From the NCBI GenBank assembly GCA_964356315.1, contig CAYHHA010000003.1, positions 12,010 to 76,009 on the forward strand: 64,000 bases of DNA, read 5' to 3'. Made by a program: the position numbers and the translations under genes. Shown one piece after another: positions 33,901 to 60,900 of the stretch (the stretch's first letter is position 1; each line of letters begins with the position of its first letter). The notes under the pieces were generated by a model, which did no database searches, was not told where the DNA came from, and saw nothing but the letters and a program-made list of their open reading frames with translations. This DNA is from an uncultured Gammaproteobacteria bacterium (GTDB lineage: Bacteria > Patescibacteriota > Microgenomatia > UBA10105 > UBA927).

Positions 33901-36900
33901 CCATTCCGATTGAATGTTTTTTGCAAACTCTTCTCTACCCAAATATTCATACCTTGACTCAAAATAGGACCATGCATTGAGTTTATTTGCAATAAATGTC
34001 AGAGCTTTTGGTTGAATTAGCTCGCCAAAGTAGCCTCGTTCGGCAAATGGCCAATCCAATATCTGCTGAATCGTTGAAACTTCCTGAACGTCATCATCAG
34101 TGGCGTTTATATCAGATCCCATATTTTTTAGCGATTCCTGAACGATGAATGGCTGAATATATGACCATAATTGGTCTGCAGCTTCAGGGGGCAATGTTAC
34201 GGATAAATTTAATAATTTCTCTGCCAGAATTTGATGCCCTTCTCCTTCTATATCCGATAAATTCAACGCAAATTTGACCATGCCTTTCGGCAAACCTAAT
34301 ATTTTTAGGGCATACTCAGCCTGGCTTGTATCTTGAGCAATTTCCAAACTGGAGAGAATGTCAGGATCTCTAATACCCGTTGTGTACAAAAACACCAGTA
34401 AGTCCTGCTTCGTACCTCTGGACTCCCTGAAATTCAAGATGCCTCCGAGCTTCTTTGCTGCCGATTGGGTAAAATATTTCACACCGCCCCGTACGTCATA
34501 GCACTTCCCACCACATAAATCTTTCTCATTGGCTTCCATAACTTCCAGAATTTTCCCTCTTCCCTGATCTATCAACAATTGTGGCGTAAGATCGCGATAA
34601 TATGCGACTATTTTTTCACCGGTCTTTATTTGCTCCTCCAATGCTTTTGTCTGACGATGATGCCCATCATCCACCCAGCGCTTGTCTGAGGCATCAACCC
34701 ATGTTCCCATAATACCCGCACGCCGAAGATCATACCTCTTTCCTTCTATGGCAACATTTATTTTTTTTCCTAATTTTGTAACTTTTTCCTGCAAATCCTG
34801 GTGAATACCTACGTCGTCTACCGGTAATTTCAATATATTTGCAAACGGATTTATGGTTGTTTTACCCTCAAAATATCGCAATCTCAACTCGATTTCATCA
34901 AGGTTTGAATAAATTGCAGTATTATTTATGGAACTGGCACTTTGCTTTTCATTCTTATGGATAAAAGGAACAGCATTTTCCGCCATTAACGCAATGGCTA
35001 ATTTTTTGATTCCCCATTTATCTTTAATAGCGGTAAGGATAAGTGAAGATACTAACGACTCTTCGAGTAATGATTCCTCATGTTCAATTCCATATGTAAA
35101 TCGGGCTCGGTTTCCATACGTCAGAGTTTCTATAATCGGAAGATATTCGGGATTCTCAAGGGCCAGAGTAAACCATTTTGCCCGATCATCATACAGTGCG
35201 AGCTGCTTTTTTAGAAACACCTGCTGCTGTATATATGCTATATATGGATTTGGAACTTTAGTGATGATAAATACCCCATATCCAACGTCCTTCATTTGTA
35301 TCGGCTTATCATACGTTTTTTGACTGTTCATGACCATAAATCCTATGGATCCCATAGAGCCATATGACACCACAGTCGGAAGTTGCGCCAATTGCGTAAC
35401 TTTCTGTTGGCTCGTCAGTGTCATATCACTCTCTATAAATGCACGCAGTTGGACTAATTCATGAGGAGTTGGAGTTGTTATATCGATCACAACATCATGC
35501 CCACTCTTATCTTTAAATGTAAATTTGAACCCATCATTTCCAACATAATAGATTCCCAATGTCTGATATTGTTCCTGTAATTTTTTTGCCAGAGCTTCTA
35601 TATTTTTATTGAGTTCGACGCGATCAAGATTTTCATTGCTGTTTGCACGTGCTTTATCTGCCTCCAGAGTCTGAATATCGCCAATAATCGTTCGAATGGT
35701 AGTCTCGTCAAAAGCAACCGAGTCAGAAATCTTTAGCACATCGTGTAACGATTGTGTCGAGGCACCCGTGCGCAGTTGGCGTTGGACTGCTGTCTGCAAT
35801 TGGTCCACGTCTCCATGCTCTTTGCGACTCTCGTCGTATTTTTTCGCCAAAAGAGTACGGTCTTCTCGCAAATATTCTGCTGTAACATCTAAAATCGAAT
35901 CATTGCCAAATTCAGATATATTTAAGTAGTCTTCTTTGTGCGAGGATGTCATCTCTGGAATCTTTAATCCATACGATTCGCCCGTTTTCGCATCTGCAGC
36001 GATCCGATTCCACAGATAGATACCTATCGCGTCGACGAATGCATTGACGAGCGACGGTTCCTGAGATATGCCTTGAGATGTAAATAAAGCTCCTACAATT
36101 TCCCGTAGGCGTGCTTCATTCGCCGTAGTAAAGCCGTTGGCTGTGGCATCGGCAGACACATACCACCCTTCTGGAGTTATAGAAGTCTGCATAAGAGATC
36201 TTATGGATTCAAAAAATGCTGCCGTATCCCCTGTTACATCCTTTTTGATAGCCGCACGTAGTATTGCATTCACCATAGGAATTGCATCTATCGGAGCAAC
36301 CCCATCTGATACAAACTGCGCTGCAATTCCAGCACTTTGTGACACTACCTCAGCACTTCTTGCAAGATCAAATCCCGCGTCCATAGCAGCTCCAATGGGA
36401 AAGACTCCGGAGAGAAGCGCATCGATCATATGTTTTACGTTTGGCACAGAACGTAGATATGATGGCAAATTTCTGTATATAATGTGCCTGAGCGTTCTCC
36501 TTTCAATCTGAGAGATCTGTGCCTCTGACGGCACTTCATACACGGCAAACTGACCATCTTGGCTTCCAACCAACAGCACTGTTTTATCTTTGTATGTAAT
36601 CAGTACTTTTCCTTGAAAGACAGGAACTTGAGGTGATCCCATTGCCTTCCAGAGACTGATAGTTGAAAGTGTCGTTTCACTTTTCTTGTCACCTTCAAAT
36701 TGTACAGTCATCGATTCTTTGGATGATACGCCTATGTTAAACGTTTTTGCCAACTCAGTGTAGATCTGTACCATCGTCGAAGCAGTTTTTTCTATGGTTG
36801 AATGATACGTCACGCCATCGAATTGAACCGATGTGTATGGGAAATCTGCTGAATCACGCTCAAAGTATTTATAGGCCACATCAGTTTTGTCCTCATTCGA

Positions 36901-39900
36901 TTGTATGAGTATTGATCGGCCATCTCTTGATATCACAACGGGCCGGTGTGCACGCAGCTCTGTTTCCACCTGATAATCAGTGAGATTATTTCTGTACCCT
37001 CCGGGTACATCATCATGTCCCGCCAATTGCCCCATCATTGATTCGGCAGGATCATACCCCACAAAGCGTTTAACGGCTTTCACAATATCTTCCGGAGGAA
37101 GTAGCCAAGATGAGACACTATCGGAGAATATTGTGCTGAACTCTACTGATTCCCACGAGGTAGATGCAAATTCCCCAACTTGTGCTTGAAACGGCAGTGT
37201 GGATGGATCAAAAATGACATCAGGAGTTATAGATTTAACTTCAAGGAAAGCTGGATCAACATGAAACAGAGGAGCTGTGGCCAGTGATGATCCTTTTGTG
37301 TTTGCGTTACCACCGCGTGGTGCTTCTATCGGTTTTGACTGTTGCAGTCGTGCGTACACATACCTTCCCAGCTCGTTGGTAAGCCTGAGGAGCGCTACAT
37401 TGGATATAGCGGAATTATTACGTCCCAGAGAATTCTCTGCAAGTACTTTGGTTATTTTTGTGGTATTTGCTTGCGCTAAGACGAACGCAGACTCAGGGTT
37501 TTTATCATCTGCCTTGGGCATGACCCAACCTGTCTTCATACCATCCAGATCATCTACAGATTTTTTCAAGGCAGACAGAACCGTAGGAAGCTCGCTTCTT
37601 TTTTCAAACCCCACACTAAATATGGTCTGAACATACACAGACAACAACCGCTCCACGGAAACTGCAGACTCACGTGCCTCGTTGAGTTGAGATTGTATGC
37701 CCGTGAGAGCCATCCTAAATTCCGGATTTGCCTGAATTGCTTCAACAGCATCTGTCAACTGCGATACTGATGTATAGAGTCCGAGCGCGGGCAGGATTGA
37801 TTTAATGACCGAGTCTCTGGATGCGTCTGCAAGAGTGATGGTTGGTTCCATGGTCAACAGGAGGTCGATCATGGTATTCCCCGCTGATTTTTTCTCATCC
37901 TGAACTGCTTTATCGGGAATTTGGGAGAATACTGCTTCTGCAAACGGGCGAAGGAATACGTACAGATCGTAGTTTTTTCCCGAAGTATTCAAAGAAGCGA
38001 GGTGTGCTGCAAGTATTGGTCTGTTTAACTCTTTGGTTTGCAAACCTGTGGGAGCAATGAATGCAAGAAGCTCTTTGAGAAATGCAGGATTTGTGAGGAT
38101 TTCATCTGCATTTTTTGGTTCAGGTTCGCCAAATGATGTCACCTTTTGAATTGCCGCAATCGCCTTTTGGAGTTCCGTTACAACAGTCGGCAGATCTTTC
38201 ATACTCACACTTCCAAGCAACTGCACTAGAGATGGCATATAGAGGGAAAATTGTTGCATAGCCTCTTGAGGAGTATTGGTACCCGTTTGGAATGATGTAG
38301 CCAGCTCCCCCATCGCTTTTTGAAGTCTTGTCACTTGAGCTCCGGTTCCCGCCATATCTGACTGAATCTTATCGAGTGGAAACCCCGAAGAGACAAATTC
38401 GTTTATAAATCCAGTGGCTAGCGCTTCATACTCCGTGGTACTTTCTTTCCATGTTTGTGGAACTTCCTCAAGCAGTTTAACTGTCAGATTTCGTACCCGT
38501 TGCATTGGAGGCTCTGTGTATAAAAAGAGCTTTTTATATGCGTCCACTTTTTGACCGTCTTTTTCAAGCGCGGCAATCAGGATTGATGCATTTTGTTCCA
38601 GTGTTAGAGATTCATTGTATGCAATCCCCAAACCGAATTTGATGTTTGCTGATTTCATCAACTGGGTAAGTTTGTTGCGTGTTGAATCGGGAGCGTCTTT
38701 CACCTGCTCTGCGGTTCCACCTTTCAATTTTTGCACATCAAGGAGTTGTTTATCCATACTTCTCCATACGTTCACATAGGCTCCAGCTATAGCCAACCTT
38801 CCTTCGGGTGTCTGTATAGTTTGCTGAAATGCAGACAATGGCGATCCTGCAAAATTCTTTATATTTACATTTGCACTCTTCAGAACCGCTTCCAGAAATT
38901 TACCGGGAGATACGGCTATCTGTTCTTCCGTTACCCCATATGTACCGACCGTAGCTCCCATCAGATTATCAAATTCACTCAACTGTGCCATATCGATGGT
39001 ACTACTTTTTTTCACCTGCTCGGCAAATTCTTCGAGTTTTGCTATGACCGTAGACTCAGGTGGAACTTTTGCAAATATCGAACTCCCGAGTGAGGAGAAT
39101 TCTCCATGTAACGATCCTTGAGAGTCCTGCATATTTTCAAAGAGTGCCCGTATAAACGATGGGTCCAAGAGCACTAAAAATGAATTAGGATTTGATGCTA
39201 CACTCGCTCGCACCGCATCTAAAAATGTATCCTTAGTACTTTTCACCGGTGATTTTATTTCCGATAACACTGATGTCATTTTTTGTTCCATCTGCTTCAT
39301 TGTTTCCTCATCACTTAACTTCGTCCCTTTGTAGCCGTCCAAAAGCGCCTGTATTGATTCCAATGACTTCTCCATTTGTAGTTTAATAACTGAAGGACCG
39401 GCATCTGTTGGAGTCAGAGAATCCAGAAGACTCTGTACCCAGGTAGTTAATCTATCAGCATACACTGCATCATTCCATAGCGTTGCGTCTTCTGCTTTTG
39501 GAGCCGGGTAGAGTTCCAGTAATCCTGTTTGTCCCACAGCTTCACTGACTCGATTTTGAAGCAAACTCAGGACATTGCGAGTAGCCTTCATTACAGCATC
39601 TGCGTTTGATAGTTCTTTTCTGAGGCTCTCCAAAGGCTTTATGACACGTTCATATGACTGATCTGCAATTTCTGTTCTAAACGCTCTGACATCAGTACCG
39701 ACTGAATTTGTATTCCAATCGCCTTTTTGTATAATACCGACCAACACATGGACAGCAAATTTTTTATAACCACTGAGCCGCGCAAACGTATGAGCAAATT
39801 TCTCTGTTCCTGCAGTCAATTCAATAAACTCAGGGGCAAAGCCATATTGTTTTCCGTACGCTTCAAGTAGCGCTTTCAGTCGCTGAACAACCTCATCCGT

Positions 39901-42900
39901 AACCAAATCAAATGCAATTATATTAGCGTTTGAATTATCAAAATCCGATGGCTTAAACTCTGGTTTTACTAACTCATCAAATAGTTGCGCGATGTCTTTG
40001 GTCAGAGTATCCGGTATTTGCGTGCCATAATCTCGAAGCGCTATTTCAACGTTTCTAAGTAATTCAGCATGTTCGATTCGATTTGTTGGGACAAGAACAG
40101 CACCTTCTTTATCGGTATTCATTGCACCTGCATAGACAGCTGATACGTCTGACCCAAAGACCTGTTTTACATTGCCTAACGCCTTCTGCACCGAATCTGC
40201 ATACCCTACATTTTCAACAGGTTGCGTTCGACTGATTTCCTGCTGTAACTTATCCAACGCTTCAGAAATTGGTTGAGCTTTTTCTATAACAGGATTTGTG
40301 GCAACTTCAAGCTGTCTGTTCCAGAGAGCAAATGTTTCAGCAGGAATACTTCCATCTGGTGTCTTTTGCACATTCTCTATGACAGTCAACGGAAGGTCGT
40401 GTAGAACCTGGTCATTCATCAAAGACACCACCAAAAGTGATTCCTGATCATTAGAAGCGGTGAGAATAGCAGTGATACTTTTCACCAGCGCGTCTATAGC
40501 AATGGAATCTGCGGATCCACTCATATACCCACCGTTTCTCTGCATTGTTTGAGAGTATAGTGACGCAATGATTCTGGCATAGTGCTTTGACTGAAGATCT
40601 GCAGGAAGAATGCTGAGTCCTACCCTCTGTATGCCTTCCACTTCACGGGTAAATGATTCCTGCTTATCATCCCGACCCGACAACTTTGCCACCTGTGCTG
40701 ACAGGTCGGTGACTTGCTGTATGCGCGAGAGGTTTGCCACTAGAGGCGCCTGATTTTTCAAACCATTGAGGACTCCAGTAAGCATCTTGTCCATAAACTC
40801 GAGTTCTCCTTTTTGAAGATTTTTACCTAAACGATCTTGGACATGGATCTCGACATAGGTTAGAAACGCCTGTAAATCACCAAGTGATTTTTTCGTTAGA
40901 TTTATTTGCGCGAATGCTTTGAATTTGTCTTTTCCCTTGACCAAGGGCATTACCACAGTCTTCAAAAATGCAGAGGCTTGTATGTCTAATGCTTCTCTTT
41001 TGCCTGCATCATATTGCTCCTGCATTGCAGCTTCCAATTCCGTTTCAGTCCAATATGTTGAAGCTTCGTCTTTCGACTTTTTTGGTTTGGCGGTATTCGT
41101 GACATTCAGTTGAAACAGTTTCAACTGTGATTCAACAGACGTAGTATCAGAAGCACCTACTTTATTTCTAACTGGAGGCAAATCACCACCGGTTTTCCCT
41201 GCTTCATACGCTACCTCAAGAGTTTTTGCTATGACTCCCCGCGCTCCCCGCTGTCGTATAAATCTCGGGTTTGTAAAATCATCACCCTCAAACATGGCCA
41301 TTTCGTTGTAGTTGGATAGTAGTATCCCAAGGAGTCCCGCGTGTTCTTTGTTTCCAAATAGAAATGCATCTGCCTGTGCTATTTCCTCCGGAATTTTAAG
41401 CACATCGGTAAAAAATGTAGAAAACGTACTTTTCCATTGTTTTTTAGCTTCATCCTTCGATCCTGAGCTGATAAACTGTGCAAATAAAGTCGCCAATTGT
41501 TTGCCGTTATCCGTAGAGATATCCCGTAATGCATCCACGACCGTATAGAGAGATGTCACTACATCCTCAGACCACATCGGAGCCGGTACAAACCCGATCA
41601 TAAGAGACATAGCCTGCAGATATTGTTTCGCTACCACTGGGTCTACATCTTTTGCTTCCAGAAAACTCCCAATCATATCCGCATTTTTAGGATCAATGAG
41701 AGCTGCTGCCAGCTCTGATTGATTTTTACTATTTACCTCCAACATTCCGGATGCTCCCTCTATCAACACATATAACTGAATATATGTCGCACGATTTAAC
41801 GGTTCCCCCGGAGTCGGCAGTGAACTTGCTGCGAAGGCAAACTGCTGTTTACCCGTCAGACTCAACGACGGCGTCGCTGATCCAAGTGACCTCGTACCCT
41901 TTAAGAACGTTTGAAACCAATCTATAGCACCATCAGTAGTATTCACAACTGTGTACCATGGAGCATCTGTAAGAGTGTTTAGGGCATAGGTCAGCGCTTG
42001 ATTTGGCGCACAGGATGTAGCTTGGGCATATACCACAGGAAGTATATGAATACCAACCTCACACCCAATACCGGACCGAGCCACTAGATCACCAATACGG
42101 GTACGCTTTCGTGCTGAAAATTCATCTCCCCCATCCATCATCGCCTGAAATTGAGTAGGTAAGTACGTACGGACAGATGTTTTTGTATTTGATGGACCTC
42201 CACCTCCAGCTAGAGGAGATTTGAATGAATTTCTGATATCTTTAGTGGCTTGAGGGGCAATGGCCACAGCCATAGTTCTCGCAGCATCCATGTCTCCGAA
42301 TAGAACCTGTAAAAGTTGTTCTTCCTGTGCACCAACAGTAATATTGAGAGTAATATGTCTCCATTCATCGCCGGCAATAATTGCTTGAATATGCCCTGAC
42401 ACCATTAGTGATAATCTAGATGGACTTTGCGAGTTTACTGATATATATGCCCCTCTTCGTTTCTTATTTATAGGATCAGGTGATGATAATTCAGCCTGTA
42501 TCGCCACTATGATAGATCGTGCGATTTCTCGTACGGATGGATCAAGTCCAATTGTGGTAAAGGCTTTTTCTATGTCATCATTTGGCGCTTTTGTTGAGGC
42601 TGTCGATTTTGTCACCGCGGGTTTTGTTTGCGCTTGTTTAAGTGGAGCTTGAGATTGTACTTTCTCGGCTGCAGGCTTTTTCTTATCAGCCGTTGCAGCA
42701 AACATCTGTGCCTGAAAACTCTTTGCCAGTAGTTTCATCTGTGCATCCGTGTTTGGTGGGAATTTTTTGGTATCAAGTAATTTTTTGTAAATATTATTAG
42801 TGACATTTGTGCTGTCCGGTTTCCAACCAGCACTGTTTGCTCTTTGTTGAATAAATTGTCTAATCGCTACACTATCTCTTACTCCAACAGTGGCGGCAAG

Positions 42901-45900
42901 AAGTTGTGCCTGTAGCGTAGGTTCCTTTGTAATTGTGGCTATGATAGTTTCCAATTCCGTCTCGGCATTAGTAGCGGTTGACGTCGAAGCACTCGATGAC
43001 GGCTGCGTGTTTGTCGTCCGATTTGCGACAGTTGTAGCTGTGAGCAGTAAGTTTCCTTCAGCATCAAAGGAAACAGTAAATGCATCATGGCGGGTATTTC
43101 CAAACCGTATCTCATCTCCGGCTTTAAGGATCTGAGGTTTTGTAAACTCTCTTCCGTTGATTGCAACATCTTCAGATGATGCTTTGTTTATAAACCATTC
43201 GCGTTTATCTGGATTTCGGTCCAAATCATACTGATTTGATATCTCCATATTCCCAGATATCACCCGAATATGGGCATTTTCGGTGCTATTCATCTTGAGA
43301 GATTTTGCCGTTCCGCCGAACATTGATTGTTGTAATCTGTATATGACTCCTGCTTGTGGAACTACACGTGATTCAGGCACTATTTCTGTGGTTTTTGCCA
43401 AAGAGGCATCGAACTCGGCTTGTTTTTGTGCATATGCTGCAAGCACCGGGGTAAGGATTTGTGGATTGATCAATCTAAAGTAGTTCACTCCTCCTACTGC
43501 CACTTCTCCGGTTGGAGAACCTGTTCGCTCATAGTCCCCCACTGTTTGACCGGAAAATGGCATCGTCTGTGTTATTGTATTGTTTCTGTTATATCCAATC
43601 GTTCCGCCTGTTACCGTTCCCTTAAATGTCTTAAAGCCATTCTCTTCTTTTACAAACACCTCTAAGCTCGTATTTACTGTCTGATATAGCGTTATACGAG
43701 TACTACTCATTTGATTACTAAAGGTTCTGTACAAAGGATTTTGGTTTATGTTGAGTGCTGCATCCCTAAACCAAAGTTGTCGGATAGCAACGAGTGAAGA
43801 GAACTCATCACGAGATCGAATCTGATAGTTGCCTAAAAATTCTAGTGCTGCATTTGCAATCGCAGGCTGTACTACATCAGCATTGGAGAGATTCAAAACT
43901 AACGTAATTTTCTGTGCATCAGTGACAAGTTTTGATTTCAGAGCATTCACAATCTGCTCTTGATTGCCTGCTACATTTGGCTGAGCGGGGGCGGATTGAG
44001 CTGCCACATTTTTCTCTTCAAACAAATCAAATCCACCATTTGCTGACCGTTTAAAATTGATGGTTATAGTATCAATAGTGAATGAGCCAGCATTAGTATT
44101 GTTTAGTGAAAAAACAAATGGACGCAGTGTCGATGTTACGGGAACATTATTAACCCTATGAGAACCGATTGAACCAACCGTTAGATTTTCACTCGTCGTG
44201 CTCGCTTCAACTGAAACGAGTGGATCTGTAGTCTCTAAACGATTTGCACGAATTTCCATTTTTCCATTATTCATCCAAAGATAATATGACTTACCATCCT
44301 TTGGAATAGTGCCGATTGATACTTCCTGTTTGACAGTTGAATCCGACGCTTGAGCTTGTGATGCGGGGGCATCACTTTTTGGCGGCGCTGTAGTTATACC
44401 AACATAGACAATTTTCTCGTCATCGCCTTTTCGCAATATAAATGCCTGGAATTCATTTACTTCGGCTTTCGTCTTTGCGTTTAGCTCATCAAGGGTAGAT
44501 TGTTTAATCACCGGCCCGAGGGTGGAAGATTGCGGAAAAAGTTGAGAGGCAACGAGCATCTTCATGTCCCTCTGCGCGCTTATCAAAATTTCTTGAGAAT
44601 TATAAAAATATCCATCGGTCACTGAGGAAAAGTACTCCGCAATTTTTTTCTTATCTCCACCAAACGCTTCTACATAGGCTTCGATTACTGGTGAAAAATT
44701 ACTAGAGAGAGCCATCTTATATAATTCTGATCTTTTTATAGGATCAGTCCAATCAAATTTTCCAGAAGTTTTCAATCGCTCAAGCACGCGGGCTAAACCG
44801 ATCGCTCCACCCCAATACTTTGAACTTTTTTCTATTTGCTCTGTGGGTAATCCTATTTTTTTTGCGTAAAGATACTGAAGTGCAGTCACGACGATCTCTT
44901 GGGACTCTGAATCAATTGGCATCCAATATGATTCTGTCGTGGAAGCATCGCGAAGTGCAGATATCTTCAAATGAAGTTTTTCATGAAAAAGTGTTAAGGC
45001 TTTATCCTGATCTGTTGTATCAGTCCGTGCTAAATTTAATGCGCCACCACCTTGCACATGAGCTTTATCACTATCTTCTTTACGAAATACGATAATATCG
45101 TTTATCGGATCTGAAACACTGTTTTCATCATATACATACGATGAATTTTCTTGTTGTAGTAGTTTGATAAGTGTTTCTTTCGTTTGGATTGGCAAATCAT
45201 ATTTTAGTGCCTCTTTTGCAACAACTGCAGAAATAACTTCTTTCAGATCTGAATCCGTAAGTGTTTTAAGAGCAAATGAATTGTTTTTAGAGCCAAGTAT
45301 GTATTCCAAACTTACGCTAATTGCATCTGCCTCATGAGGAGCTAAAAACCCAGGAAATTCAGTATTAACTTTTATAATCGCATCCCCTATATTGTTTATT
45401 CTATTATCCAAGGCAACAAGCACATGTATTGTGTATCGAGCAATTTTATTTTTCTGAGCCTCAGTAAGATTCGAATATGTTGAAAGAATGCTAGTAATTT
45501 GAGCACGCATTTCATCAGTTATGATGACAAAGTCTGCTTCAGACCTCGCAAGTTTTTGCGTGAGCAATTCTTTTGCAGTTCTCTCTTCCTCTTTCATCCC
45601 CTGTACAATCAGCTCGAGATCGGAAGAACTAGGAACTTGGGATGTTTTAAGATCTTCCTGGACTATTTTCAACACATCACGCACTTCCACCATTTTGTTA
45701 CCAGCGCCAAGCGGGATTATGGACGCGCTTACAAGTGCTTTAAGAATATCTACATTTCCCGCCTTCTGAACCGCTCTAATCGCCCTTGCGAGAGATCCAA
45801 TTGCAGTCTTTGTATTTTTCAAATCTACCTGTCCTACTTTTTGTATCTGACCCAGTGCTGTTACTGCTTCTCTCACTCTTGTGACATCACGATCCTTCAG

Positions 45901-48900
45901 AGCGTCCGTTAAATCGGATAGTAACGTTTTAAAATCAACATCGACGACTGGCGCAGCAATAACTACCACTACTGGCTTCTGCGCGTTTGCCGGAGGCGTT
46001 GGAACTGGTGTTAAATAATACATCTTCGCACCTTTGTAATATGCTTCAATAGTCGCCGTCTCAGTCAGGGCCATTCCGTTGTATTTAAATAATCCATATA
46101 CCGTATCATCTCCCACATGAAATGTGCCTGATACAACATCATAGACACCATAATCTTCTAAAAACTGTAGTAGAGAGCTAACAGACCGATATTCCACCCG
46201 AGATCCTAAGTCTACCGCAATCACCAGATCCTTCCCTGCACTTTTGGTTAACCACGCCTGCATCGTACGTTTAAATTCAGCGAAGTTTGAAAATACAAGC
46301 GGAGCTTCAGAAGTGACCACCTCATACTCGGGTTGTTTAATAAAAACTGCCGTTGACAGGCGATTTTTTCCTGCCTGTATCTCATTTATCGCATATTGAA
46401 TTTCTTCTGGAGTATTTGAATGTTTTGCGACAGCTACATCAAGTATTGTTTTACGCGCTTTCAAATTGATAAAGCTTTCTCTCAACTCCTGTACATTCGC
46501 GCTATTTTCAAAACCAAACTCAGTCAATACCTTCAAAAATGGATCTGAAACTCCCAATACTGCATTTATATACGTCAAGTCGTTAGACTTTTTCAGAGAA
46601 TCAATACTCACCTTCAATTCCGTGATCATCAATGCAAATTCGTTTACATTCCCCTTACTAATTTCTATTGAATGATTCTTATACACATCTGCAAATGGAT
46701 TTTGCGATCGAATCGTTTTCTGGATATGACCGTCCAACCTTTTATACAGAATAGGCCGTAATTCATCTAGGGATTTCCATTTTTCAATAACCGGCTTTAG
46801 CGTCATGACAATTGCATCGATATTCGCTTCGTCTCGAATCTTGCCAAACGCATCTATAACCTGTTTCACAAATGAATCAGCTTGAGGCTGAGCATTAAAT
46901 GTTGACACAGCGCTCTCCCATGAAGCAATAGACAAAGCTGTCGCAGTCTTCACCGCGGCCGCAAGTGCAACTGTATCAGTGGTGGTATTGGCATTCTGCA
47001 ATGCGGTTAGTAATTCATTAAATACCGCTTGAGCAACAGAGGATTGACTCTCCCCCGTCGCATTGATCGCTTTTAATTTCTTATTCAATTGGGCTACCGT
47101 TTTGTTGAAATCAGTTATTTTCTTCACAATGCTTGTAAATGGATGAACACCAGTCCACTCAGATTGAATAATTGAGGCAATCTGCCCGAACCATACTAAT
47201 TCATCTGCAGCTGTTCTAGTTCTAAGTGTTCTTTGCAGTTCACGGGTAAAGAGTGTTAGGTATTTCTGTATCACTTTTCGAGCGTCGCCAACACTGGAAT
47301 CTGCGGTAATTGTAGATAAGAGATCAAGTAACGCTTGATCTTTTGTGTTTGCCTTAAGAGCGTCGATTGCTCTGTTCATGTCCGCTAAATCCTTTGCATT
47401 TGCTAGCATATCCTTTGAATATGAAGTTATTTCTTTGGATGTATATCCAAGCTGTGTAAGAATTGCTTCGTATGAGGCTATAACTTGTGCTGTTTCGAAA
47501 TTTGGATCAGCATATAAGCCTACATACAACTCTCTTAATGTCATAGGATCTATCGTTTCCTCTATTAAATCTGTAAGTGCTCCAGTAGCTTTTTGTGCGA
47601 GAGCAAGTGCCTCAGGATTTTCAGCATCGCGATCCTCGTCTTTTACCATAGCGCTGATAAGCATTGAGGTAGGGCTTTGTATATCTCCTGTAATGACTGC
47701 TACTTCTGCTGAAATATCCCTAATAGTTTCAATAACATATGATTTTCTCTCGCTTGGTCCTGCCGGTAGCTGGTGAAGTCTTATGTATGCTGCTGCTATC
47801 ACTCCAACATAATCATTTGCCTGAATATATTCTTCAGGAATGTTGATGCCAAGTTTTTCCAGATCTTGTAACAGATCTTTGTATAACCGTATTGCCCAGG
47901 CTTTGTTTCTTTTTTCCTTGAGAGACGCAATAGACTGTGTTAACTTCGTGGTTCGGGAAATCACATCGTATACTGGTAATTGTGTCTTTAGGTCAGTCTG
48001 AATTGAATAAAGAACCTGCGACCAGAAAGATAGTGTTTGGCGGTCTACCTGTGCGCCTCGAGTATTTTGCTCAGCTTCACGTACAACAACTTTCACCAGT
48101 TCTGCAATTCCTTTCACACCCGTGGATTGCGCGCTATTTATAAGTTTTGCAACTGCGGCAGGTACATTCCCTTCAAATGCCGGGAGAAGTGTTTGTTGTA
48201 TAAATTCATTTACTCGTGCGATCTCACCATTTTCTTTTCCGAGCGCGTATTGAGTGCTTAGTTCTGTGCGAAGCGATGCTGCTGTCCAACGTGTTTTTGC
48301 TCCAATACGATGCACATCGGTAAGCTGAACTCCCAATGCATTTAACCGTTTGTTAAGCTTTTCGATTGTATCAGAAGCCTGTTTGACGCCATCATACCCC
48401 TGCTTTTCTACATCACTAAGACTCATCGCAATTACATGATGAACTACATTCATTTTCTGATTGGCTATATATGCTCGAAGCGGTGCAACACGACCTCGAA
48501 GAGAGATAAGTGTGTTATCTGTCTCTATCCTTTTGAGATCTGCTTCAATACGGGCCGGAGTGTCGGATAGGAACCATGCCTCATCCAGATCTTCTGTTTC
48601 TATGCTCTGCATAATTGCGCTTAGAATAGTGCGATCCATTTGAGCCTTTCCCAAGCGGGCATTGAGAGTGGTTATGAAAGTTTTTGTGGTTTGTGCAACC
48701 CAAAACGAACGCACAGCTTCAGGAATTGCTTTACCGTCAAATTTCGCGGCTTTAGCAACTGCTGTTAGTTGAGTTACGGCTTCTGTATATGGATCATCGG
48801 CAGCCAAAAACGCTGTTTCAACTTCTTCCCGTTTGCGGGCAAGCGCACCTACCATTGCTCTATCCATGCCATTTGCTTTTGTTTTTGCGGCTTCGAATAC

Positions 48901-51900
48901 TTTCTTATACACACCAACGCTATCTGCGTCATCATCAGCTAAATTCGGCCTTCCGGAAATAAAATCCAACATGCCTACGGTTGCATTGCGGGATCCCTGT
49001 TCTTCACGCAAAATATTTAACAATAAATCTGCTTCGTTGATAGGATCAGCAAAAAAGTTGACGAATGCAGTGCGTTTTTCCTCAACTGTTGCGGACTGCA
49101 ACTCTATCTTTTTATTGTGTCGCATGTAGAGGATGGTAAACAAAAGTTCTTTCGCTGTAAGATTCCCCATATAGCGTATATCTACTCTCCAAGTTGGATT
49201 CTCTAGGCCATCAACTCCTGCAAGAAGACTAGATATACCGGCATTAAATGTTCTTCCATCACCATATGGATACGCGCGGAGTGCAGAGACATCCACAAAT
49301 TGTTTTGCAGAACTTAGTAGTATAGAGCCGTCTCTGAGTGCAAGTTGGATGCCTTTAAGTACTTGTTTGATATACTCTACACGATCCGCAGGTGTCAGAT
49401 CGTTTGCCAGTGCAGCTCGCACGATAAGCTCTGCCCAATAAGGTTGTTCTGCTTTTTTGGTGTCCACAGGCAGGTTTAATAGAGCGTCTTTCAATAATGC
49501 TACTACCACTGGGTCGTTCAGAGCAGCAAGAGCTGCATTAAACACGCCTTCTGTTGTTCCATTTTCCTTGGCCACTTTTTCTACTATCTTTGGAAAATCG
49601 CCTTTGGCGGGAGTTATGCCTGTGTTAGATGCAAAGGCGCTCGACAATACTTCCTCTACCTCTACTTTCGGATCCTTTTGCACGGGTGCAAAAAAGAGCA
49701 TATACGCAAAACCCGTATCATCATTTATCATTCTCGTAAATTCTGCCAACGTGAAATCTCGGGCGACATTTAATCGTTGATCCCAACCTAATATTTTTTT
49801 GTTTACTCCATCATATCCATAGAGAAGCATTGCATGATTTTCTCCTGGGACGCCGAAGGTAGCTACCCCTCCCCTACGGAATGTTTCCATGAGTGCAGGG
49901 ATTGACCTGCTGTTTACTCCCCTATTTCTATCCGATAACGTATCTATTTTTTCACCATAGAGTTCCTCCACAACATGTGTTGCCGTCTGCATCATAAAAC
50001 CGACAGGATCAGCTGCTGAGTACGCGTTGGGATCAGGCTTGTTTGTCGTACCAAATTGAATTTCTATCGCTTTATTTATAAGCTCCGCTTCACCATTTTT
50101 TGGCAATGGGATTTCCGGATTATTCTGATTCAATATAATAATCGCATTTTGAAGAGATGCCGTGACACACGATGAAAAATTACAATTTCTCAAAACTGGG
50201 TTTCTCCCACCATTGTACATCTGTGGTTTCATTTCAGATGGTCGCAGTAATTTAGGACCTATGACAGTAGTTGGCAACTGCCCACTCGCCAAATATCGTG
50301 TGTTGATAAGTGAGATCGCATCGTTGGACGATCCGAATAGACTTCCAGAACTATGAAGCGCATAGGCGAGACTCGGAATTCCGGTAAATTCTACGGTCTT
50401 ATATTCAGGCTCTTTCTTTTTCGCTTCCGCTATATCATGACGAATATTTTGAATCTGAGTTTTGGCATACTTTTGAGCGCCAACTTTTGCTTTTGGATTG
50501 ATTCCAACTATGCCGTCCACAATTTTTTGTATTTCTGCCTCTGCCGTATAGGTAAAGTTAGATTGAATACCTGCTTCCGCAGACTGAAGTGCTTCAGACA
50601 TAAAATCAACACCGAATGAGAGTACTTGTCCAGCTGCTTTTTGGAAAAATCCGTAGGATATGTCGGTAAATTCACTTTCGGTAAATAGAAGTGTTCCACT
50701 ACTGAGATATATAGGAACATAAAAATCAAAAGATAATGCAGCATCGATTGCGGTGTCTAAATCAGCGCGATCGTTTATGATAATCGCACGGACAGCAGTG
50801 GCTGGAACACCAATTGAGGCAATAAAATCTTTGGAATCTGAGACCTGCCCTGCGCTTCTCTGTTGCATCGTCTGGTCGTCAAAATCCATGACCAGCGTGA
50901 CGCGTTTTTCTGCTGCAGTGCTAACACCATATTCTTTTGCTTTTGTTCTATTTATCACATCTATCGGCGTATCTTTTTGGAAAATTTGTCCCGGCTTTGA
51001 CATAAATACTGCATTTGGGATAGTCCCTACACTTCCGTAATAATCCGCTGCTAGGACACCATATTCACCCTTGTCTGATACCTGAGCCAGCGGGACACCG
51101 TGAAGTACTACATTTCCCGTTCCTTTTTGATCAAAGAGATTATTTTCCGCCACTAGTTGGACATTTCGGTCGTGAGCCTTCTGTACCGCTGCCGGGTCAT
51201 GACTTTGGTTTGCAATCACAAGTGCTTCGTCTATAAACAATTTTTCCAGGTTACCGTTATAGTCACTTACCTGTTTGTTACTTGGTAGTGAACGGATCGT
51301 GCTTTGACTCTGCATTGCTGTAGATCCCGATTGTGCAGCGCGTACCAGTTGTCGTATGGCATCCTCGCGTGGATCCCCAAAAACAAGACCAACTTTCTTC
51401 GTAGGAGCAGCTACTCCACGAGCGGCATCTAGAACACTTCGCAGATCCTTCAGTGATTGATTTACTCCCTTAACCGGGAATGCTGCATTCGCAAATTCGT
51501 TTGCAACAAAGGCTATCATACTGACACGTTTTGTGCTCTGCAGTGCTGTGATAGCATCTGTTATCTTTAGTACTCTTGGGGCATACTTTAGACCCACTGT
51601 TTTCCATTGTTGTGGAGATAATCTGGCAAGTGTGGTGAGCGCAGTCTGCGCCTTTTTCACATCTGGAGCTTTCCCGCTTTCAATAGCACTTTGCAGGTCT
51701 TTGAGAGCTTTTGCATATTCTTTTTCGGTAACGTCTGCCGGTTGAGATTGTTTTTTCCAAATCATAGATTTTCCATGCCAATCCCCACTTCTCATATCTC
51801 CTGATCTCAGTGCCAGCGCAAATCCAAATTTCTCGTACATAGAGACGAGCACATCTATATCTGCCTCATCCAATATTGTTCCCTTAGCTATCGGCAAACC

Positions 51901-54900
51901 ACTTGGCACTGCCTGAAGTGTGATTTCTTGAAATAACTCCTGTGCTTTTTTGATCATTGTTGTTGCAATATCCTGCCCCTGATAGTCCGGATGCACGATC
52001 ATCCTATCTGCTTCTGCCTTTTTTCCATTTGAATCTGTTGTATGGAGAGTCAAAAATCCGACTAATTCATTGCTATCATTGCGTACTGTGATTACGTGGG
52101 TAGTTTTGTTGTACGCAGGATCGGCTTGATTCCAATTTTCCAACGGATTCGCATCAGCAATAGATTGTTTAAATGCTTTAATTTCGTCGATGAGTGATGA
52201 AATATTACTTTTCTTCGTTTCAACGACAGGATTTATGTTTGTGAGAGTATTTGTACCGGAGGAGCCCGTTGATGATACTTCATATTGTATCCATTGAGGC
52301 TGACCGCTTGTATCAAGCCCTGCAAAATATAGATATACTGGCTCAGCCAGTTCGGATGACTCAATTTTCACGAGAGGTGTTTCCCCACCTGTTTTAGTTT
52401 GAATACTTGCACGCTCACGGTCAACATTAAATGAACCACCTGAAGGCGTGTTTGTAGCCTCAAATACTCCATTGGCTCTTTTGAAGTATGTGGCAGTATA
52501 TGCGGTCACTCCTGAAAAAATACTGGTAAATTGATCTGATGTAACCAGTCCTTTGTCAACAAGTGTCGGACCATTCTTTATCGTGATTTGTTGTGGGGTA
52601 TTTTTTTGAACTGTTGCTAATTTCTTATTCAACTTCGTTACGGTTTTGTTGAAATCTACGATCTTTTTCACAATGCTTGTAAATGGATGAACACCAGTCC
52701 ACTCAGATTGAATAATTGAGGCAATCTGCCCGAACCATACTAATTCATCTGCAGCTGTTCTAGTTCTAAGTGTTCTTTGCAGTTCACGGGTAAAGAGTGT
52801 TAGGTATTTCTGTATCACTTTTCGAGCGTCGCCAACACTGGAATCTGCGGTAATTGTAGATAAGAGATCAAGTAACGCTTGATCTTTTGTGTTTGCCTTA
52901 AGAGCGTCGATTGCTCTGTTCATGTCCGCTAAATCCTTTGCATTTGCTAGCATATCCTTTGAATATGAAGTTATTTCTTTGGATGTATATCCAAGCTGTG
53001 TAAGAATTGCTTCGTATGAGGCTATAACTTGTGCTGTTTCGAAATTTGGATCAGCATATAAGCCTACATACAACTCTCTTAATGTCATAGGATCTATCGT
53101 TTCCTCTATTAAATCTGTAAGTGCTCCAGTAGCTTTTTGTGCGAGAGCAAGTGCCTCAGGATTTTCAGAGAGAAGTGTTTCGAGTTCTTGATATCTTGGT
53201 AAGAGATCTTGTACTGTTTGTTGCAACTCCTCTACTGTCGATATCGTTCCATATTGTTTGTTTAGCTGCTCAATCTCTTGATTGGTCTTTTCCAACACTG
53301 CTGCATCATATAGAGACTGTGCCTGATCTAATAATTTTGAATTTGCCAGAGAAATAGCACGAGGTGTAACACCAACTTCTTTCCATTTTAGAAGCTCTGC
53401 TTTTTCTATGGTGCCGTCATACTCAGGATCATTTTCCCACGCGGCTGCAATATCTGTAGCATATGCTGTGACTGTGGAGGCAAACACTTCGCCCCGCAAT
53501 TTGGTAAATGCAGCATTTGCTTCATCCACCTGACGCTGCATCTTAGCTGTATTTATATCTCTTTGAACGATAGCTCCAATTAGGGCACTGGCATCCTTAA
53601 ATCCTTCAAGGGTTATGTCTGGTTGTGCGAGAATTTGTGATACTTCACCAAGCGCTTCGGTTACGCGAGTTTTTGCCTCATTTTGTTTTGTTGGCACCAG
53701 TGGCTTTAACAATCCCTGCAATTTTCTTAAGCCTTCTTTGAGTCCATTTGGAGCTATACCAATCAGACGAGAAATTTCCTGTTCCAATGGTATTGCCCTA
53801 TCTACCTTAAGATTATTATTTGCGATGGTCATTTGGACTAATTCATAAAGAGCAACGGAGATAACATTATTGATGGTACTATCCGTATAGCTTGGCCCAT
53901 CAAGCAGACCGTCATATTCTGGGAATATTTTGCGCAACTCTGTCAAGATTTCTTGTGCTTTCACAGTAGATGCCACCGATTTTTGTGTTCCTGGAATAAA
54001 CTGTATGACTTTTTTGCCTCCTGGTGCCACCGGTGCCTGTTGGATAACAGGAACAGCTACAGTCTCAGAGGATTTCGGAAGCTTTGATACTCTCATGACA
54101 GCTACAGACACATCATCCGGTGCTTTTGGTCCTCGAGATTCCACTATTGGCTTGATCAGATTAAATATACTTCGTTCTATCTCAAGTGGGCTACTGCCTT
54201 TTCCTGCTTTGACCATGTGTTCTGCGTAGCTTTCTGTCTTGGTGCTATCTTTTGAGAAATATTTATGCAAACCGTCTGATGAGATTAGGATGGTGTCACC
54301 TTCCGTGACCGCAAATGAGGTAATTTTTGCTCCCCAGAATGCGTCGCGGCCGAGCATGTTTGGAATTAGACCCATGGTACCCGTTGATTTCATCGCATAC
54401 ATATCCTGGTACGCTGATGAGCTTGGATAGTCAGGGCCATTTTGTTTTTGTGTCCAGGTATTTACTTCGTCCAGTTCATACACTTTTCCATCACGGCCAA
54501 ACATAATATCTCCATCTCCTACCCGAATGGTAAACACATACCCGGCAGGATGGATAAACGCACCTGTGTATGTGGATGCGCCATCCTCACCAAATTCATC
54601 CATCACTTTTCTGTTTATTTCAAATGCCTGTTGTTCCAGGAAGGACTGCACTTTGTTTAGCGGCAGTTTTTTTGCTTCTGCCTTTACCTCTTCCATCAGA
54701 TCAGCTATATAACGGGCGCCCTCAGGGGAACGCGAGACATGCTTACTTGATACACCGTCAGCGGATCCTATAGATGCCGGTTTTACTGCTATAGCGTCTT
54801 CTCCTGACTTTTTGGACTTTGGTTTGCTTACATGGACTGCAGCGATAACGCCATTTGGCCCGCCTTGTTCCATAGTTATGTTACCCTCCGACTGGTTATC

Positions 54901-57900
54901 TACTACATGTACTGTGCCATCGAGCTCTACAGAAAGAGTATATTTGTTATTGATTTCGACCAAATCAAGACGATCTCCTCTTGCACTTATAACTGCTGTC
55001 CATGCCTGATTGTCGAGGCGAATGACAGTCCCATTCTGAAGAGGAATCCCACTTAATGGTTGTCCATCAAAGGTGCCAACTCTTCCACGAGAAGGCATAT
55101 TATTGATCGTAAATACACCTGTCGCGGTTCTGACTATGTTAAAGGCCTTTCCTACAAATCCAGGATCAAGCACTTTTATATTTTGATCTGAATCAGAACC
55201 AAGTGACACTTTCCATTCTCCTGTAAACGGCTTTACATCTACAATTTCCATCCCGCCATTTGCAAACAGTTTATACATGCGTTCACTTGCGGGATCATAG
55301 ACAGCCAATGTCCCTTCATACTCTCTGACAAAGTACGAAATGCCGTTATGAACGACTGTGGTGCCTTCCACAATCGGATCGCTTGCCTGATCTTCCGCTA
55401 AAGGTTTTCCATCTACAATTGCATTATTATTTTTTGGCATCACTACGAACGCACCATCTCCCCGGCGTTCTATGACAAAGACTCTGGTTCCTACATTATC
55501 CTCAATTGTCGGCCAGCTTGTAACAATTTCATTGCGAGCCAGAATTTCTGCAAGATAGCCGTCTATTGCTTTAACGAATGCGGAATTGGCTTTTATCTGA
55601 GCAAATACAGATTTGATGTCTGCTTCAGAAATATTCAAACCCTTCAATCGGTCAGCAATTTCATCTGACAGAACAGGATCTGACGAATTTTGGAAATCAG
55701 AAGAAAAATGATCACCTAAGATAGTCCGAATCTCGGTCAGCTTTTGTGCGTCAGTTAGTGCGCTATACTCTGCTACTTTCATCCCCCCATATTTTCTGGT
55801 CAGTAATACGTCGACAAGATTGGACACAATAACATCTGCTGCTTTTGCAGCATTTATATACCCCACCAATTCCTGCCAGGTTTGAACGTTGTTTATATCC
55901 AGTGGCGCCGGTCGGGTGGCTAATTTTGCCTGAAGTCTGGAAAGAGCACTTATGAGTACCTGAGAATTTTTTATCACGCTAGCAAATGGATGAACATCGG
56001 TCCATCGGGATTGAATATATTCTGCGACTGATTGCAGTGCACTGAGCTTTTCATAATTTGGCTTAGTTCTACCAACTTCTGTATCTATAGCAGCTATCAA
56101 TAATCTGACGAATGCTCGCGCTGCGCGCTGGGATGATATGAGGTTTTTCCCAAGTTCAGGAATTGCGCGGGCCAGTTCTGTGGCTTTTGTACTCCCAACA
56201 AAACTGATTAAATGTTGCCAGACACTTTTAGAATACGCATAGTCTGCTACCTGTTTTGCTTCTGCCAAAAGTGACTGTATGTTAGCCTGAATTGTTCTTA
56301 TCGCAATACGTTGGGCGGCATATACATTGCGTATGCCATCCAACTCTGTTGTGACAATATAGTCAGGTTCTAGTACCAGCCTACCTGCTACATCTCGAAC
56401 AGCAGTATCGTAGAGTGCATCAATTTTCTTTTGCAGCGCCTTTTCAAATTTGCTCAAATTTCCGGGAGTTAGAGCTGCAGAATCTTTCACTTTCGGAGGT
56501 AACTTTTTGAGTTTTGCAATCAGCTCGACGGCCTGTACAACCTCTGTTTCATTCACAGTCGCTGAGGTTAAAAGTGGTAACAGCGTTGCAATGTCACTTT
56601 TCGCCTTTTGCTCCGGTGTAGAGCTTGCGATAAAAGCAGTTCGAGCTTTTTCAGTCAAGATAGTTGTCTGGGCACCTACCCATGCCTCATAGATCGGCAA
56701 GTCAACGGTAGCTGGTTTTATCACTGCATCCCGAACTTTCGTTTCTATGATAGTGCGTGCACCCGCTTCTCCTGCACCAAATACCGCTATGCCAGCACTT
56801 ACTATCGGAGCTGTATTTGGAGGAATATTGAGTTCAGCAAGTTGAGGTTTCAGCAACGCAAGTTCATCTCCTATATATGTCTTTGGATCCGCTGATGTAT
56901 CAACACCTTTTAACAAAGTAAATTCAGATGTTAGTTTCAGTATACCTTCGGATTTGGCAAGTATATCCGTCTGCGACACTCCAGTTACGAGGCTTTCTAT
57001 GAGAGATACCCGTTCGGAAACGACCTTTGTATGAAAGGCTGACCGTTTTTCTGCTATATCTTTTGCTTTGGCTTTGATGGCGTCTGTGGCTCTGGCGATT
57101 TCTGCAGATTTTACATTAGCCGTTGAGTACGTAAATCCACCCAGAAGTGTATTTATAGCCGTTTCCACATTTCCGAGTGTCGTTAGGTTTTCATCGTAAG
57201 CGTTTTTGTTTACCAGCAACAGTGCAATTCGTTCTATTTCGCGATCTGATACTTTTTGTTTTGCATCACGGGCAACGGCCACTCTCTCTTTTAGATCGGT
57301 ATATGCGATGAGTGCTACATCTTCATCTTCTTGCAAATCCACGATTAAGACAGGAGGAATTGATAAACCAACGGCTTCCTTGTTTAGGGGGGTAATTTTA
57401 GTGATGAGATCATAATATCCTGCTGTTCTGATTTTTGCACCACCACCACCACCTCCACCAGCTCTTAATCTCGCGGTAGATATCTCTGTGAGTGGGATAA
57501 CGTATGTTTTACCTGCGCGATGGATAAAAACTCCATATCCAAGAGAAGTAATATTAGTGGGTACGGTATGTGAAAAAGATAAATTGCGACCTAACGTCTC
57601 AGAACCCTCTACCGTAACATGGACTCTACCAGTTGCCTGTGCCACGTGTATAAAACCGTAGTTAATCGTGTCGGTCGGCAAAATAGTCACTTTCTCACGT
57701 ACATCACCTTTTTCAACGGAGGGCGTTTCTCCACTGGAGGTATTACTGACTAACATCTGCACTTCATCTCCGACATTTAATTGCCCTGGAGTTGCAAGGG
57801 TTTGATTTACAGGAATTACTACCACAGGAGTTGTACCACCACCAATAGAGTTTATTTGCGCGGCCTTTTGTTTCACCCACGCTAGATACAGGGCGTTATA

Positions 57901-60900
57901 TCGCTGGTCAACTATACCGAGCTTCCCTACGATCGCTGTCTCTACTCCTAGGCCTGCTACCGGTAAACCACCAGCTGCAACCATTGTTTCCCAATCTTTT
58001 ATTTGCGCTACGATATCTTTGGCAAAAGCATCTGCGCGATCTTGCAAAACAGATACCTCAATTGTTGGAGAAATACCGGTAGTAGTAGCCGTTTTCAATA
58101 AATCTAATATTGTTTTTATAGCTGTTGGATCGGCAAGTGTTGGAGCGGTTATACCAGCTTGGATAATAGCTGGCGTATTTGCTACTACAACTGCATCCAT
58201 AGCAAGACGTAAGGCAAATAATCGCTTCGCAAGTGCAACAACGATCGCCATTTCATCGTTTACCGTTTGTGTTCGGAGTCCTGAATCAGTAATAGTCGAA
58301 TTAGCAGCAACTATCTGAGCGCGTGCATCTGCAACAAACGTATTTGTGGAAACATCTATATCAGCCAGTCCGCCAACATTTTCAGCGATTACCACTGCCT
58401 TTTTATATTGTGGAATTTTCGAAACATCGCTCGTTCCAGCTATCGATTGATCAAACGCATCGGGTGAAATAAATGCCCAGAATCCACCAGGAGTAAAAGA
58501 AATTCTTATAGCATCAAATATCCACAATGCCATATTTCCCAAAAATTCTGTGATCGCTAGAGGAAGCGGAACAAATTGTTTCCAAAGGAATGCGCCACCA
58601 GTGACACCCCGAGTCAGATAATACGATGGGTTAGCTCCGGGCGTTGCAGTAAGTAATTTTATAACCCACGAAATAAATTTATTGGGCGTGGTTGGATTAT
58701 GTATCCAAAGACCTCGTTGTAAATCATTAAGCTGTGACCACTGAGGTGGATCCTGAAACGGTGACAAGTACGATAGCACTGTTTTCGCTTTGCTAGGAAG
58801 CCACGTGACCGCATCTAATTTTGTAGTTGTTACGACGCGAGCTGGAGCATTTGCCCAATAATCTATTTGTCGCAGCACATCCATCGCAGGAAGCCACCAA
58901 TTTCCAGATACAATAGCAGATGCTCGAGTTCCGAGAAAAATTACAGTTTTAACGATAAAATGCACATTTTTCACAGTTGCGTTACCAACAGGTATACTGC
59001 GTCCGAAAGTTGGAAGTACGGTTTCATATGCCACAAGTGCGAATTGCTTCCACCCTGTCTCAGGCATTCGCTCTATATAGCGTCTCGATTCATTCATGAC
59101 AGCTACTGCTACACCTCTGAATCCACCACCCAGCATGTACCATCCAGCTATTCGGTTTGCCCCCTGTAATACTTGTGTCACTTTTGTTCCATTCGACTGT
59201 GATGCGTTGACATCAGAAGACACCCCAGAAGAGAGAACATATTTTATATACCCAGTCGGAGATTTCGAGGTAGTGCTTGGTGTCATGACATATCCAATAG
59301 ACCCGAGAAGTAGTGAGATTCCTCCAAATACGGCAAATACTTTATTGATTGACCAGACTGCCTTTGTCGCAACCTCTGAGGACGCTACCGCTTCAGTTGC
59401 GGTTACCGTTGCGACAGCTCCCCCAGCTCCCGCGATCGCTCCGATTCCCGCTACAACTAATGCTCCGACCGCCAGTGCGATTATTCCTGCTACCCATCTT
59501 GGCAGAGAAATATTTGAACTCACTGGAGCACTAAACCATGTGCCAACATCTTTGAGCGCAGGCACCACTGTATTCGTAAACCAGTTTGATTTCGCAGGCG
59601 CCTGTGCGGGAGTGATTGAACTCACAGTAAACTGTGCGCCTCGGGCGTTTAGATTTGAACTGAGCACTATCCGAGTCCCATCAAAATCAACGACATCATC
59701 TTTTTTCAACTCAAACAAAGCCGTAGATGTAACATTTACAGGCCTGTTATTTATCAGTAAAGTTTCACTTCCCGATGCGGGGCCAACTTTTGCAACCATT
59801 CGGCCACCCACTTGTTCAACTAATACTTGAATTTTATCTGCTGGATCTCTTCCCGTAGTCAATCCATTTGTATTTGACATCCAGAATAGATCATTAGTCT
59901 TTACTAAGACATCTTTTGTCACAAAGCTAGACACTGTTACTTTCGTAATCACATTATGCATCCCTGCCCCTATGTCTTTTGCCTGATATGTTATTAGATT
60001 TCCTGCCACGTCGATGGTTATCGATGAGCCATCTGTGGCAATAGCGGTCACCTTCCCAGTTTGTTTTTGACCATAGATAAATGAACTTGGTGTTACCGTA
60101 ATAGTTTCTCCAATAACAATTGGAGCGCCATTTTTGTCTAAAATTGGAGCTACAGCTGGAATGACTGGAACTGATACTGGAGCAACACGCACCATTTCAT
60201 CATCAATATGCTTGGTAATACCATTTACGATAGCTTGTATTTTTGTTGGATCAGTTATTGTTTTTGTCGCTAATACCTTGGCAACTTCGGCCTCTAATGC
60301 CGTATGAGCAGCCGTGGCATCCTGCCCCGCCGTCTTGATAATCTCATAATTCATAGCAATATGCGCAAGCGCTGTCACATCAACACCTGGCGCTCCTTGT
60401 GCAACAAGTAAAGAAGAAAGCTCTGCTGCTACTATCGGCAAATATACTTTCACTGCCGAATTCATCCTTGTTTTTGAGTCATTCTTAGCCGTATCCGAGT
60501 CAGATTTTTCAATTGGCGTTTGATTTGGTGTCGTAATGTTAGTCAAACGACCCGCGACATCTTTATCGACCGCTCCTTTTTGACCTGATAAATCCTCAAC
60601 GGTAAAATCGATTGATGGAATAGGAATTGGCGTACCTATTAATGGAACGCCGTTAATTTTAAATCTCGCTTCCAGTTTCATAGTGGTCGTTACTCCATTT
60701 ATCACAACAGGTATTTCATCTCCAATAGAGAACATCTTCTGTTTTTGTATGGTCGCTTGCGTTCTACTATTTGCTAAATAATCCAAATTTAATGCAGTAA
60801 TTGCAATCACCCGTTGAACTCTGTTTGCAGTCGCTTTGACACCATCTGCTATGGTTGCACTGCGCTTAGCAGATTCTATGGCTGGATGAGAAGCACGCGC

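Follow-up and report, generated by a model that had tools for sequence, protein, structure and literature searches.

Why does a single bacterial gene carry the same 502 nucleotides (nt) twice, at a distance of several kilobases and without one difference between the copies? The question is raised by giant gene B, which lies on the minus strand of a 64,000-nt stretch of metagenomic DNA (contig CAYHHA010000003.1, positions 12,010 to 76,009; hereafter the window). The frame of B is free of stop codons over positions 27931-63999 (12,023 codons) and runs continuously through all four junctions between repeat and unique sequence. On the source contig NODE_68 (ENA ERZ4201063, 123,744 bp), B is called as a product of 14,806 amino acids (aa), and the downstream giant gene A as one of 11,849 aa. 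Residues of B are numbered here from the first codon in the window; by arithmetic, the addition of 2,783 gives the position in the full product. We consider it probable, at roughly 0.6, that the repeat is the product of recent non-reciprocal copying, that is, a gene-conversion-like patch laid over older sister modules in B.

The exact repeat, its edges and the module family

Comparison in register at an offset of 5,544 nt showed that positions 47123-47624 and 52667-53168 are the same, with no differences over 502 nt, which is the longest exact run. All 31-mers of the repeat occur exactly twice each in the window. The offset equals 3 x 1,848 codons, and the two copies therefore share the reading frame. 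The initial annotation had described two 100% identical, in-frame segments of about 501 bp separated by 1,848 codons, and these measurements agree with it. An exact match of 502 nt in 64 kb cannot come from chance. None of the approximately 116 synonymous sites in the core differs between the copies. Beyond the exact run, the in-register identity was at the random level (approximately 0.14-0.46 per 50 nt), except for a tail of 49 nt on the low-coordinate side. The coordinates of these features are collected in Table 1.

The N-terminal (high-coordinate) edge of the repeat is abrupt. The codon preceding it differs between the copies (TCT versus GCT), and upstream of the edge the copies are unrelated at both the nucleotide and the protein levels, the nucleotide identity (approximately 0.28) being that of random sequence. 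On the C-terminal side, the homology runs on for 17 codons, KKIVDFNKTVTKLNKKL in copy 1 versus KKITDFNKTVAQLNKKL in copy 2, and then vanishes. The tail shows 11 mismatches in 49 nt (approximately 22%), while 14 of its 17 residues are identical between the two copies. Seven of the 11 differences are of the synonymous type over 9.3 synonymous sites, resulting in proportions of differing sites of approximately 0.75 for synonymous (pS) and 0.10 for nonsynonymous (pN) sites. If divergence were uniform, the probability that all 11 differences land in the final 49 of 551 nt would be 3e-12. A single duplication of uniform age is therefore excluded. Judged from the sequence, the repeat region combines, as a mosaic, one old and one very young part.

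The exact repeat covers most of one module of approximately 195 aa. The homologous unit is about 551-585 nt long and corresponds to aa 3611-3805 (copy 1) and aa 5459-5653 (copy 2). A third, old copy of the module was located at 55897-56475, where the initial annotation had placed a strongly diverged copy (55.9–56.4 kb). It aligns with the whole module unit at an amino-acid identity of 23-25% (E = 1e-6), and it sets the N-terminal edge of the module, since aa 3614 aligns with aa 2512. The motif IQSxWTxVHPFxS is common to all three copies and strongly conserved; in the third copy it forms a 51-nt island that is 76% identical to the repeat modules at the nucleotide level. When A and the portion of B inside the window were searched with a profile built from the three copies, no further module was detected. 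Whereas copies 1 and 2 agree at most positions of the tail, the third copy matches at only 5 of the 17. Copies 1 and 2 were therefore already sisters before the recent event. A comparison of nonsynonymous with synonymous change (dN/dS) among the three copies, recommended in the initial annotation, gave little, owing to the lack of differences in the core, the shortness of the tail (17 codons) and saturation in the third copy. An all-helical structure is predicted for the module: the AlphaFold2 models, made both from the single sequence and from the three-copy alignment, were all-helical at low confidence (predicted local distance difference test, pLDDT, 50-51).

Table 1. Positions in the window of gene B, of the exact repeat and of the related features of B.
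Feature	Coordinates	Strand	Remarks
Giant gene B	27928..63999	-	open frame exits the window at the right end; 14,806 aa on ENA ERZ4201063 NODE_68
Diverged homologous tail, module copy 2 (KKITDFNKTVAQLNKKL)	47074..47122	-	11 mismatches/49 nt versus copy 1 tail
Exact repeat copy 2 (C-proximal)	47123..47624	-	B-frame aa 5459-5626
Unique inter-copy block, 5,042 nt	47625..52666	-	block plus one repeat copy = 1,848-codon unit
GNAT acetyltransferase domain	51925-52119	-	PF00583, E = 7.5e-8; within inter-copy block
Diverged homologous tail, module copy 1 (KKIVDFNKTVTKLNKKL)	52618..52666	-	no homology with copy 2 below this tail
Exact repeat copy 1 (N-proximal)	52667..53168	-	B-frame aa 3611-3778, approximately aa 6394-6561 of the 14,806-aa product
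PP2C-type phosphatase domain	54088..54762	-	PF13672, E = 3.9e-8; PF07228 weak; between third module and copy 1
Third, old module copy, approximately 190 aa	55897..56475	-	B-frame aa 2509-2701; 23-25% aa identity, E = 1e-6

Probable recent copying over sister modules and the rival explanations

The identical tract has a sharp border against diverged homologous sequence on its C-terminal side, as is looked for in gene conversion, and the other member of the family, the third module, is far more diverged than the putatively converted pair. A very recent duplication or ongoing gene conversion had been proposed in the initial annotation, and the step from 0/502 to 11/49 differences, together with the distant third copy, fits this proposal. 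We favour non-reciprocal copying, which could have proceeded as follows. B contains at least three copies of the helical module, two of which (copies 1 and 2) were already sisters, and recently one of these sisters would have received the first 502 nt of the other as a copy. The C-terminal junction directly follows IQSEWTGVHPFTSIVK, the module's most conserved motif, at which two diverged copies would be expected to have their highest nucleotide identity; similarity remaining there could have guided the exchange. The N-terminal junction coincides with the edge of the module, where the homology ends, and branch migration or heteroduplex extension may have been halted there at the heterology. 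An illegitimate (template-switch) join, retained as it was in frame, would be equally compatible with the N-terminal junction.

The identity, the common frame, the stepwise divergence, the module family and the branch in a second assembly (considered below) are observed; the conversion mechanism and its direction are what we infer from them. The sequence that follows copy 1 resembles that following copy 3 (KLAT...P..I.N..T), and aa 5686-5813, which lie beyond copy 2, show a weak similarity to the C-terminal half of copy 3 (E = 0.006). These resemblances would be weak hints to the history of the two copies, and they disagree; donor and recipient are not distinguishable. If the proposed copying took place, the youngest visible step in the building and remodelling of this orphan gene of 14,806 codons would be the copying of helical modules of approximately 195 aa. 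Intragenic conversion or duplication is itself well-known biology, and the unusual part is the host gene.

The tufA and tufB genes of Salmonella and E. coli are the textbook case of concerted evolution by gene conversion. As in this pair, the repeat of B shows a tract of full identity between paralogues that includes the synonymous sites, a sharp boundary, and neighbouring or third copies that are far more diverged. Unlike tufA and tufB, however, the partners in B lie within one open reading frame (ORF), 5.5 kb apart, and have residual homology on one side only. In addition, the prior similarity in B appears too low for an easy RecA exchange, and a route by microhomology or template switching would be equally possible.

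Several facts weigh against recent copying over sister modules. Diverged homology was found on one side of the tract only: the N-terminal flank has no amino-acid similarity and no residual homology at all, while classical conversion usually leaves some on both sides. On this side, the old homology may itself have stopped where the exact tract stops. If the pre-existing copies had diverged as much as the tail (approximately 22% at the nucleotide level), RecA-mediated exchange between them would be inefficient. The age of the event is poorly estimated from a tail of just 17 codons, and since no relatives or other strains were found in the searched collections, donor, recipient and timing are not reconstructable. 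Furthermore, the perfect identity could partly reflect both copies having been read off one collapsed edge of the assembly graph. The Logan run, from which the second assembly considered below derives, probably shares its reads with the ENA assembly and thus provides an independent assembly, not independent data.

Another interpretation is a plain recent segmental duplication, in which approximately 500 nt were inserted in frame at a site without a prior sister module. The tail would then have belonged to the duplicated piece and changed later, or it would be a motif preserved by selection. The abrupt N-terminal edge, with no homology past it, is in accordance with such an insertion. The weak similarity of aa 5686-5813 to the third module also points in this direction, because copy 2 may adjoin another old module. 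Moreover, giant gene A contains older in-frame intragenic duplications as well (7052-7301 versus 17864-18113, 76% nucleotide identity, offset 10,812; 5576-5690 versus 8873-8987, 73%, offset 3,297), which would make module duplication a mode of growth; both giants seem to grow by intragenic module duplication. We nevertheless regard a plain duplication as unlikely. The 17 codons of the tail are clearly homologous and carry 11 nucleotide differences beside a core that carries none, and one event cannot yield both. It would take a further event, or a homologue already in place, and this is tantamount to conversion. Conservation of the motif alone is insufficient to explain the tail, since the third copy agrees with it so poorly.

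It is also conceivable that the repeat, in its present form, is an effect of the assembly. The two copies might be near-identical sequences derived from one collapsed edge (bubble popping), the number of 5,544-nt loop units might be mis-stated, as an assembler passes only once through a simple loop of the graph, or the population might be a mixture of long and deletion alleles. The source is a short-read, SPAdes-style metagenome contig with a coverage of approximately 9.7x according to its record name, and a path that enters the repeat, follows a loop, and leaves through the repeat again is presumably the kind of topology at which loop resolvers guess. The Logan contig ERR3856787_257200 (21,619 bp), which another assembler produced, follows the window collinearly and matches it without a difference over the 12.4 kb that were read; by its coordinates it covers the window from 47152 down to 25534, and the length of the B fragment on it (6,407 aa) is consistent with the gene-length arithmetic. 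Its end at 47152 falls exactly 30 nt inside the 502-nt repeat. The other end, at 25534, reaches exactly 30 nt into the 45-nt exact block (25519-25563) of a 97-nt repeat that is unrelated to it. We take 30 nt to be k-1 for the k of 31 used by the Logan assembly. The contig therefore stops on both sides at a de Bruijn branch point, and at 47123 the reads continue in two ways. On the one hand, the break of the Logan contig at the repeat means that the repeat is not spanned by unique k-mers. On the other hand, the branch itself is present in the reads.

From the topology of the graph, the junctions from repeat to loop and from loop to repeat would need an arrangement of two or more copies; a graph of the form flank-repeat-loop-repeat-flank, with a loop that leaves and re-enters the repeat, should arise from at least two copies only. 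The frame is open across all junctions over 36 kb. Copies as diverged as the tail, moreover, could never collapse into one edge. The open frame, the Logan branch and the graph topology thus argue that the two-copy structure is real, and we consider an origin of the repeat in the assembly quite unlikely. The suspicion of an assembly artefact, which had accompanied the initial annotation, has been weakened by the branch and by the open frame, but it has not been removed: the assembly could have erased a small number of true differences, the loop could be present more than once, or the population could also contain a deletion allele. The repeat is the place in B where the assembly is least certain, both in copy number and in exact identity.

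A system dedicated to variation, or a mobile element inserted in frame (the template and variable repeats of a diversity-generating retroelement, DGR; an insertion resembling RPE or a miniature inverted-repeat transposable element, MITE; or a programmed recombination switch), is hardly tenable. The one point in its favour is general: a very large and probably non-cytoplasmic protein could make use of identical repeats for variation. Against it, the copies are identical and thus show no adenine-specific differences, Pfam scans of the large ORFs of the window detected neither a reverse transcriptase nor a recombinase or transposase, the ends of the repeat have no inverted repeats, only two copies exist in 64 kb, and searches of 1.84 billion representative proteins and of JGI metagenomes, IMG/VR, plasmids and phages yielded no copy. 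Typical pairs of template and variable repeats in DGRs are several times shorter than the 502-nt repeat. The folding of the repeat as RNA is not unusual (z = -0.79), no Rfam or tRNA match was found in it, and its promoter-like and terminator-like sites are at the level of shuffled sequence. An embedded RNA or regulatory signal, therefore, does not explain the conservation at the nucleotide level.

Predicted recombination between the copies and comparable repeats

Two identical direct repeats of 502 nt would be a substrate for RecA-dependent recombination or for recombination by annealing or slippage. By analogy with known repeats, such recombination between the copies would delete or double, in frame, aa 3611-5458 of B, including the GNAT domain. 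The initial annotation had regarded the site as a hotspot at which a block of 1,848 aa could be lost or duplicated in frame, as would be expected from established recombination biology. If both copies are real, B should continually yield in-frame variants that lack or double this block of 1,848 aa. Length variants of this kind would be invisible in the assembly at a coverage of approximately 10x.

Deletion between repeats of similar size has been measured in Deinococcus radiodurans, where chromosomal direct repeats of 438 bp with spacers of 1,479-10,500 bp were used as deletion substrates (PMC4627823). With the spacer of 1,479 bp, the median deletion frequency was 6.5e-4 and was independent of RecA; according to the authors, this value is more than 10-fold above that for repeats of 358 bp in Helicobacter pylori (PMC4627823). 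A single mismatch in the repeat reduced the frequency approximately 4.8-fold (PMC4627823). The geometry in B is nearly identical to that of these substrates, with repeats of approximately 0.45-0.5 kb and a spacer of several kilobases. The D. radiodurans substrates, however, were engineered reporters in a known organism, whereas we infer the instability of gene B.

Modules in one long ORF are also kept nearly identical at the nucleotide level in the spider spidroins, by unequal recombination or conversion (PMC3933166). While the spidroin repeats are tandem and numerous, gene B has two dispersed copies with unique sequence between them.

A further possibility is that the pair is maintained as a recombination switch, the population always being a mixture of long and short megaproteins with and without the GNAT block. 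We consider this very unlikely. Were it true, orphan giant proteins would possess a built-in way to vary their domain content, and the module, which carries IQSxWTxVHPFxS and lies around PP2C and GNAT in the protein, would qualify as a "cassette boundary" element of a new kind.

Gene B, gene A and the region between them

The module and the tested stretches of B were searched against several collections. Nothing was found in a word-indexed search of 5.8 billion clusters, whether with the module, with 1,001 aa of the inter-copy block or with the PP2C region of B. The module showed no relatives in JGI metagenome contigs, IMG/VR, plasmids or phages, and an exact 24-mer was without a match in the GTDB genomes. 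No Pfam family matched the module, and a profile search of the PDB gave no significant result. Within the databases searched, the module and the tested stretches of B are orphans in having no detectable relatives. The sole HMMER match of the module among the 1.84 billion representative proteins (E = 2e-4) was a low-complexity helical repeat protein, which we rejected as not meaningful.

The PP2C and GNAT domains were the only Pfam matches in the window part of B, and the inter-copy block had no Pfam match besides GNAT. The order along the protein is the third module, PP2C, module copy 1, GNAT, approximately 1,430 aa without annotation, and module copy 2. Two strongly hydrophobic segments at about aa 1504-1572 are likely to form a transmembrane hairpin. 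The content of Cys in B is 0.1%, and the protein is probably non-cytoplasmic.

Giant proteins of more than 10,000 aa with scattered enzymatic domains, including GNAT, have been described from Omnitrophota metagenomes as "Archaeovorins" and Dockerin-type giants, and the internal repeats of their genes were noted to cause fragmentation of assemblies (bioRxiv 10.1101/2023.11.21.568195). B resembles these giants in being very long and in having scattered enzymatic domains (GNAT) amid unannotated stretches. It differs from them in that no HEAT, TPR, dockerin or glycosyltransferase match was found in the giants of the window, and the tested stretches of B showed no sequence similarity to any entry of the databases searched. 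Membership of B among the Archaeovorin or Dockerin-type giants is thus not supported.

The two giants are adjacent and on the same minus strand, A at 1-24420 and B at 27928-63999 of the window, with Cys contents of 0.1-0.2%, and they have no similarity to each other. In A, Pfam detected methyltransferase domains besides an M48 peptidase and an ABC1 kinase-like domain. The motif LDLGSGEA occurs in three paralogous class-I methyltransferase-like domains, located at about aa 5200-5320, 6300-6420 and 7300-7440 of the A frame. The uneven identity of the paralogous segments of A was considered as a second conversion mosaic; it follows the conserved methyltransferase core, and this candidate was rejected. 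The called product of A begins with a hydrophobic segment, MVPGSLGLLAGFLFSFAFAL, and directly upstream of its called start there is a tandem array with units of 51/72 nt at 24420-24614 (GAGACATGGGACATGAGACAT... / CGTAGCTTAGTAG...). Direct repeats of 97 nt, 92% identical to each other (24935-25031 and 25508-25604), flank 476 nt of non-coding-looking DNA between an AbiEii gene and A.

Between the giants, at 25645-27900 on the minus strand, there are an AAA_14/DUF4143 ATPase of 408 aa and a short gene for an AbiEii-like toxin of the nucleotidyltransferase type; an ORF of 86 aa is called upstream of the latter. The ATPase has relatives of 54-63% identity spread across many phyla and is therefore uninformative on the host. 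At the best of the ATPase loci (L005, in a metagenome-assembled genome of Gammaproteobacteria), the ATPase is likewise preceded by a very long ORF (more than 3,069 aa), which is not homologous to A or B. A contig from a second sample (ERZ4201064 NODE_2686, 17.8 kb) showed a single difference from the window, at 23480, the shared region being otherwise the same.

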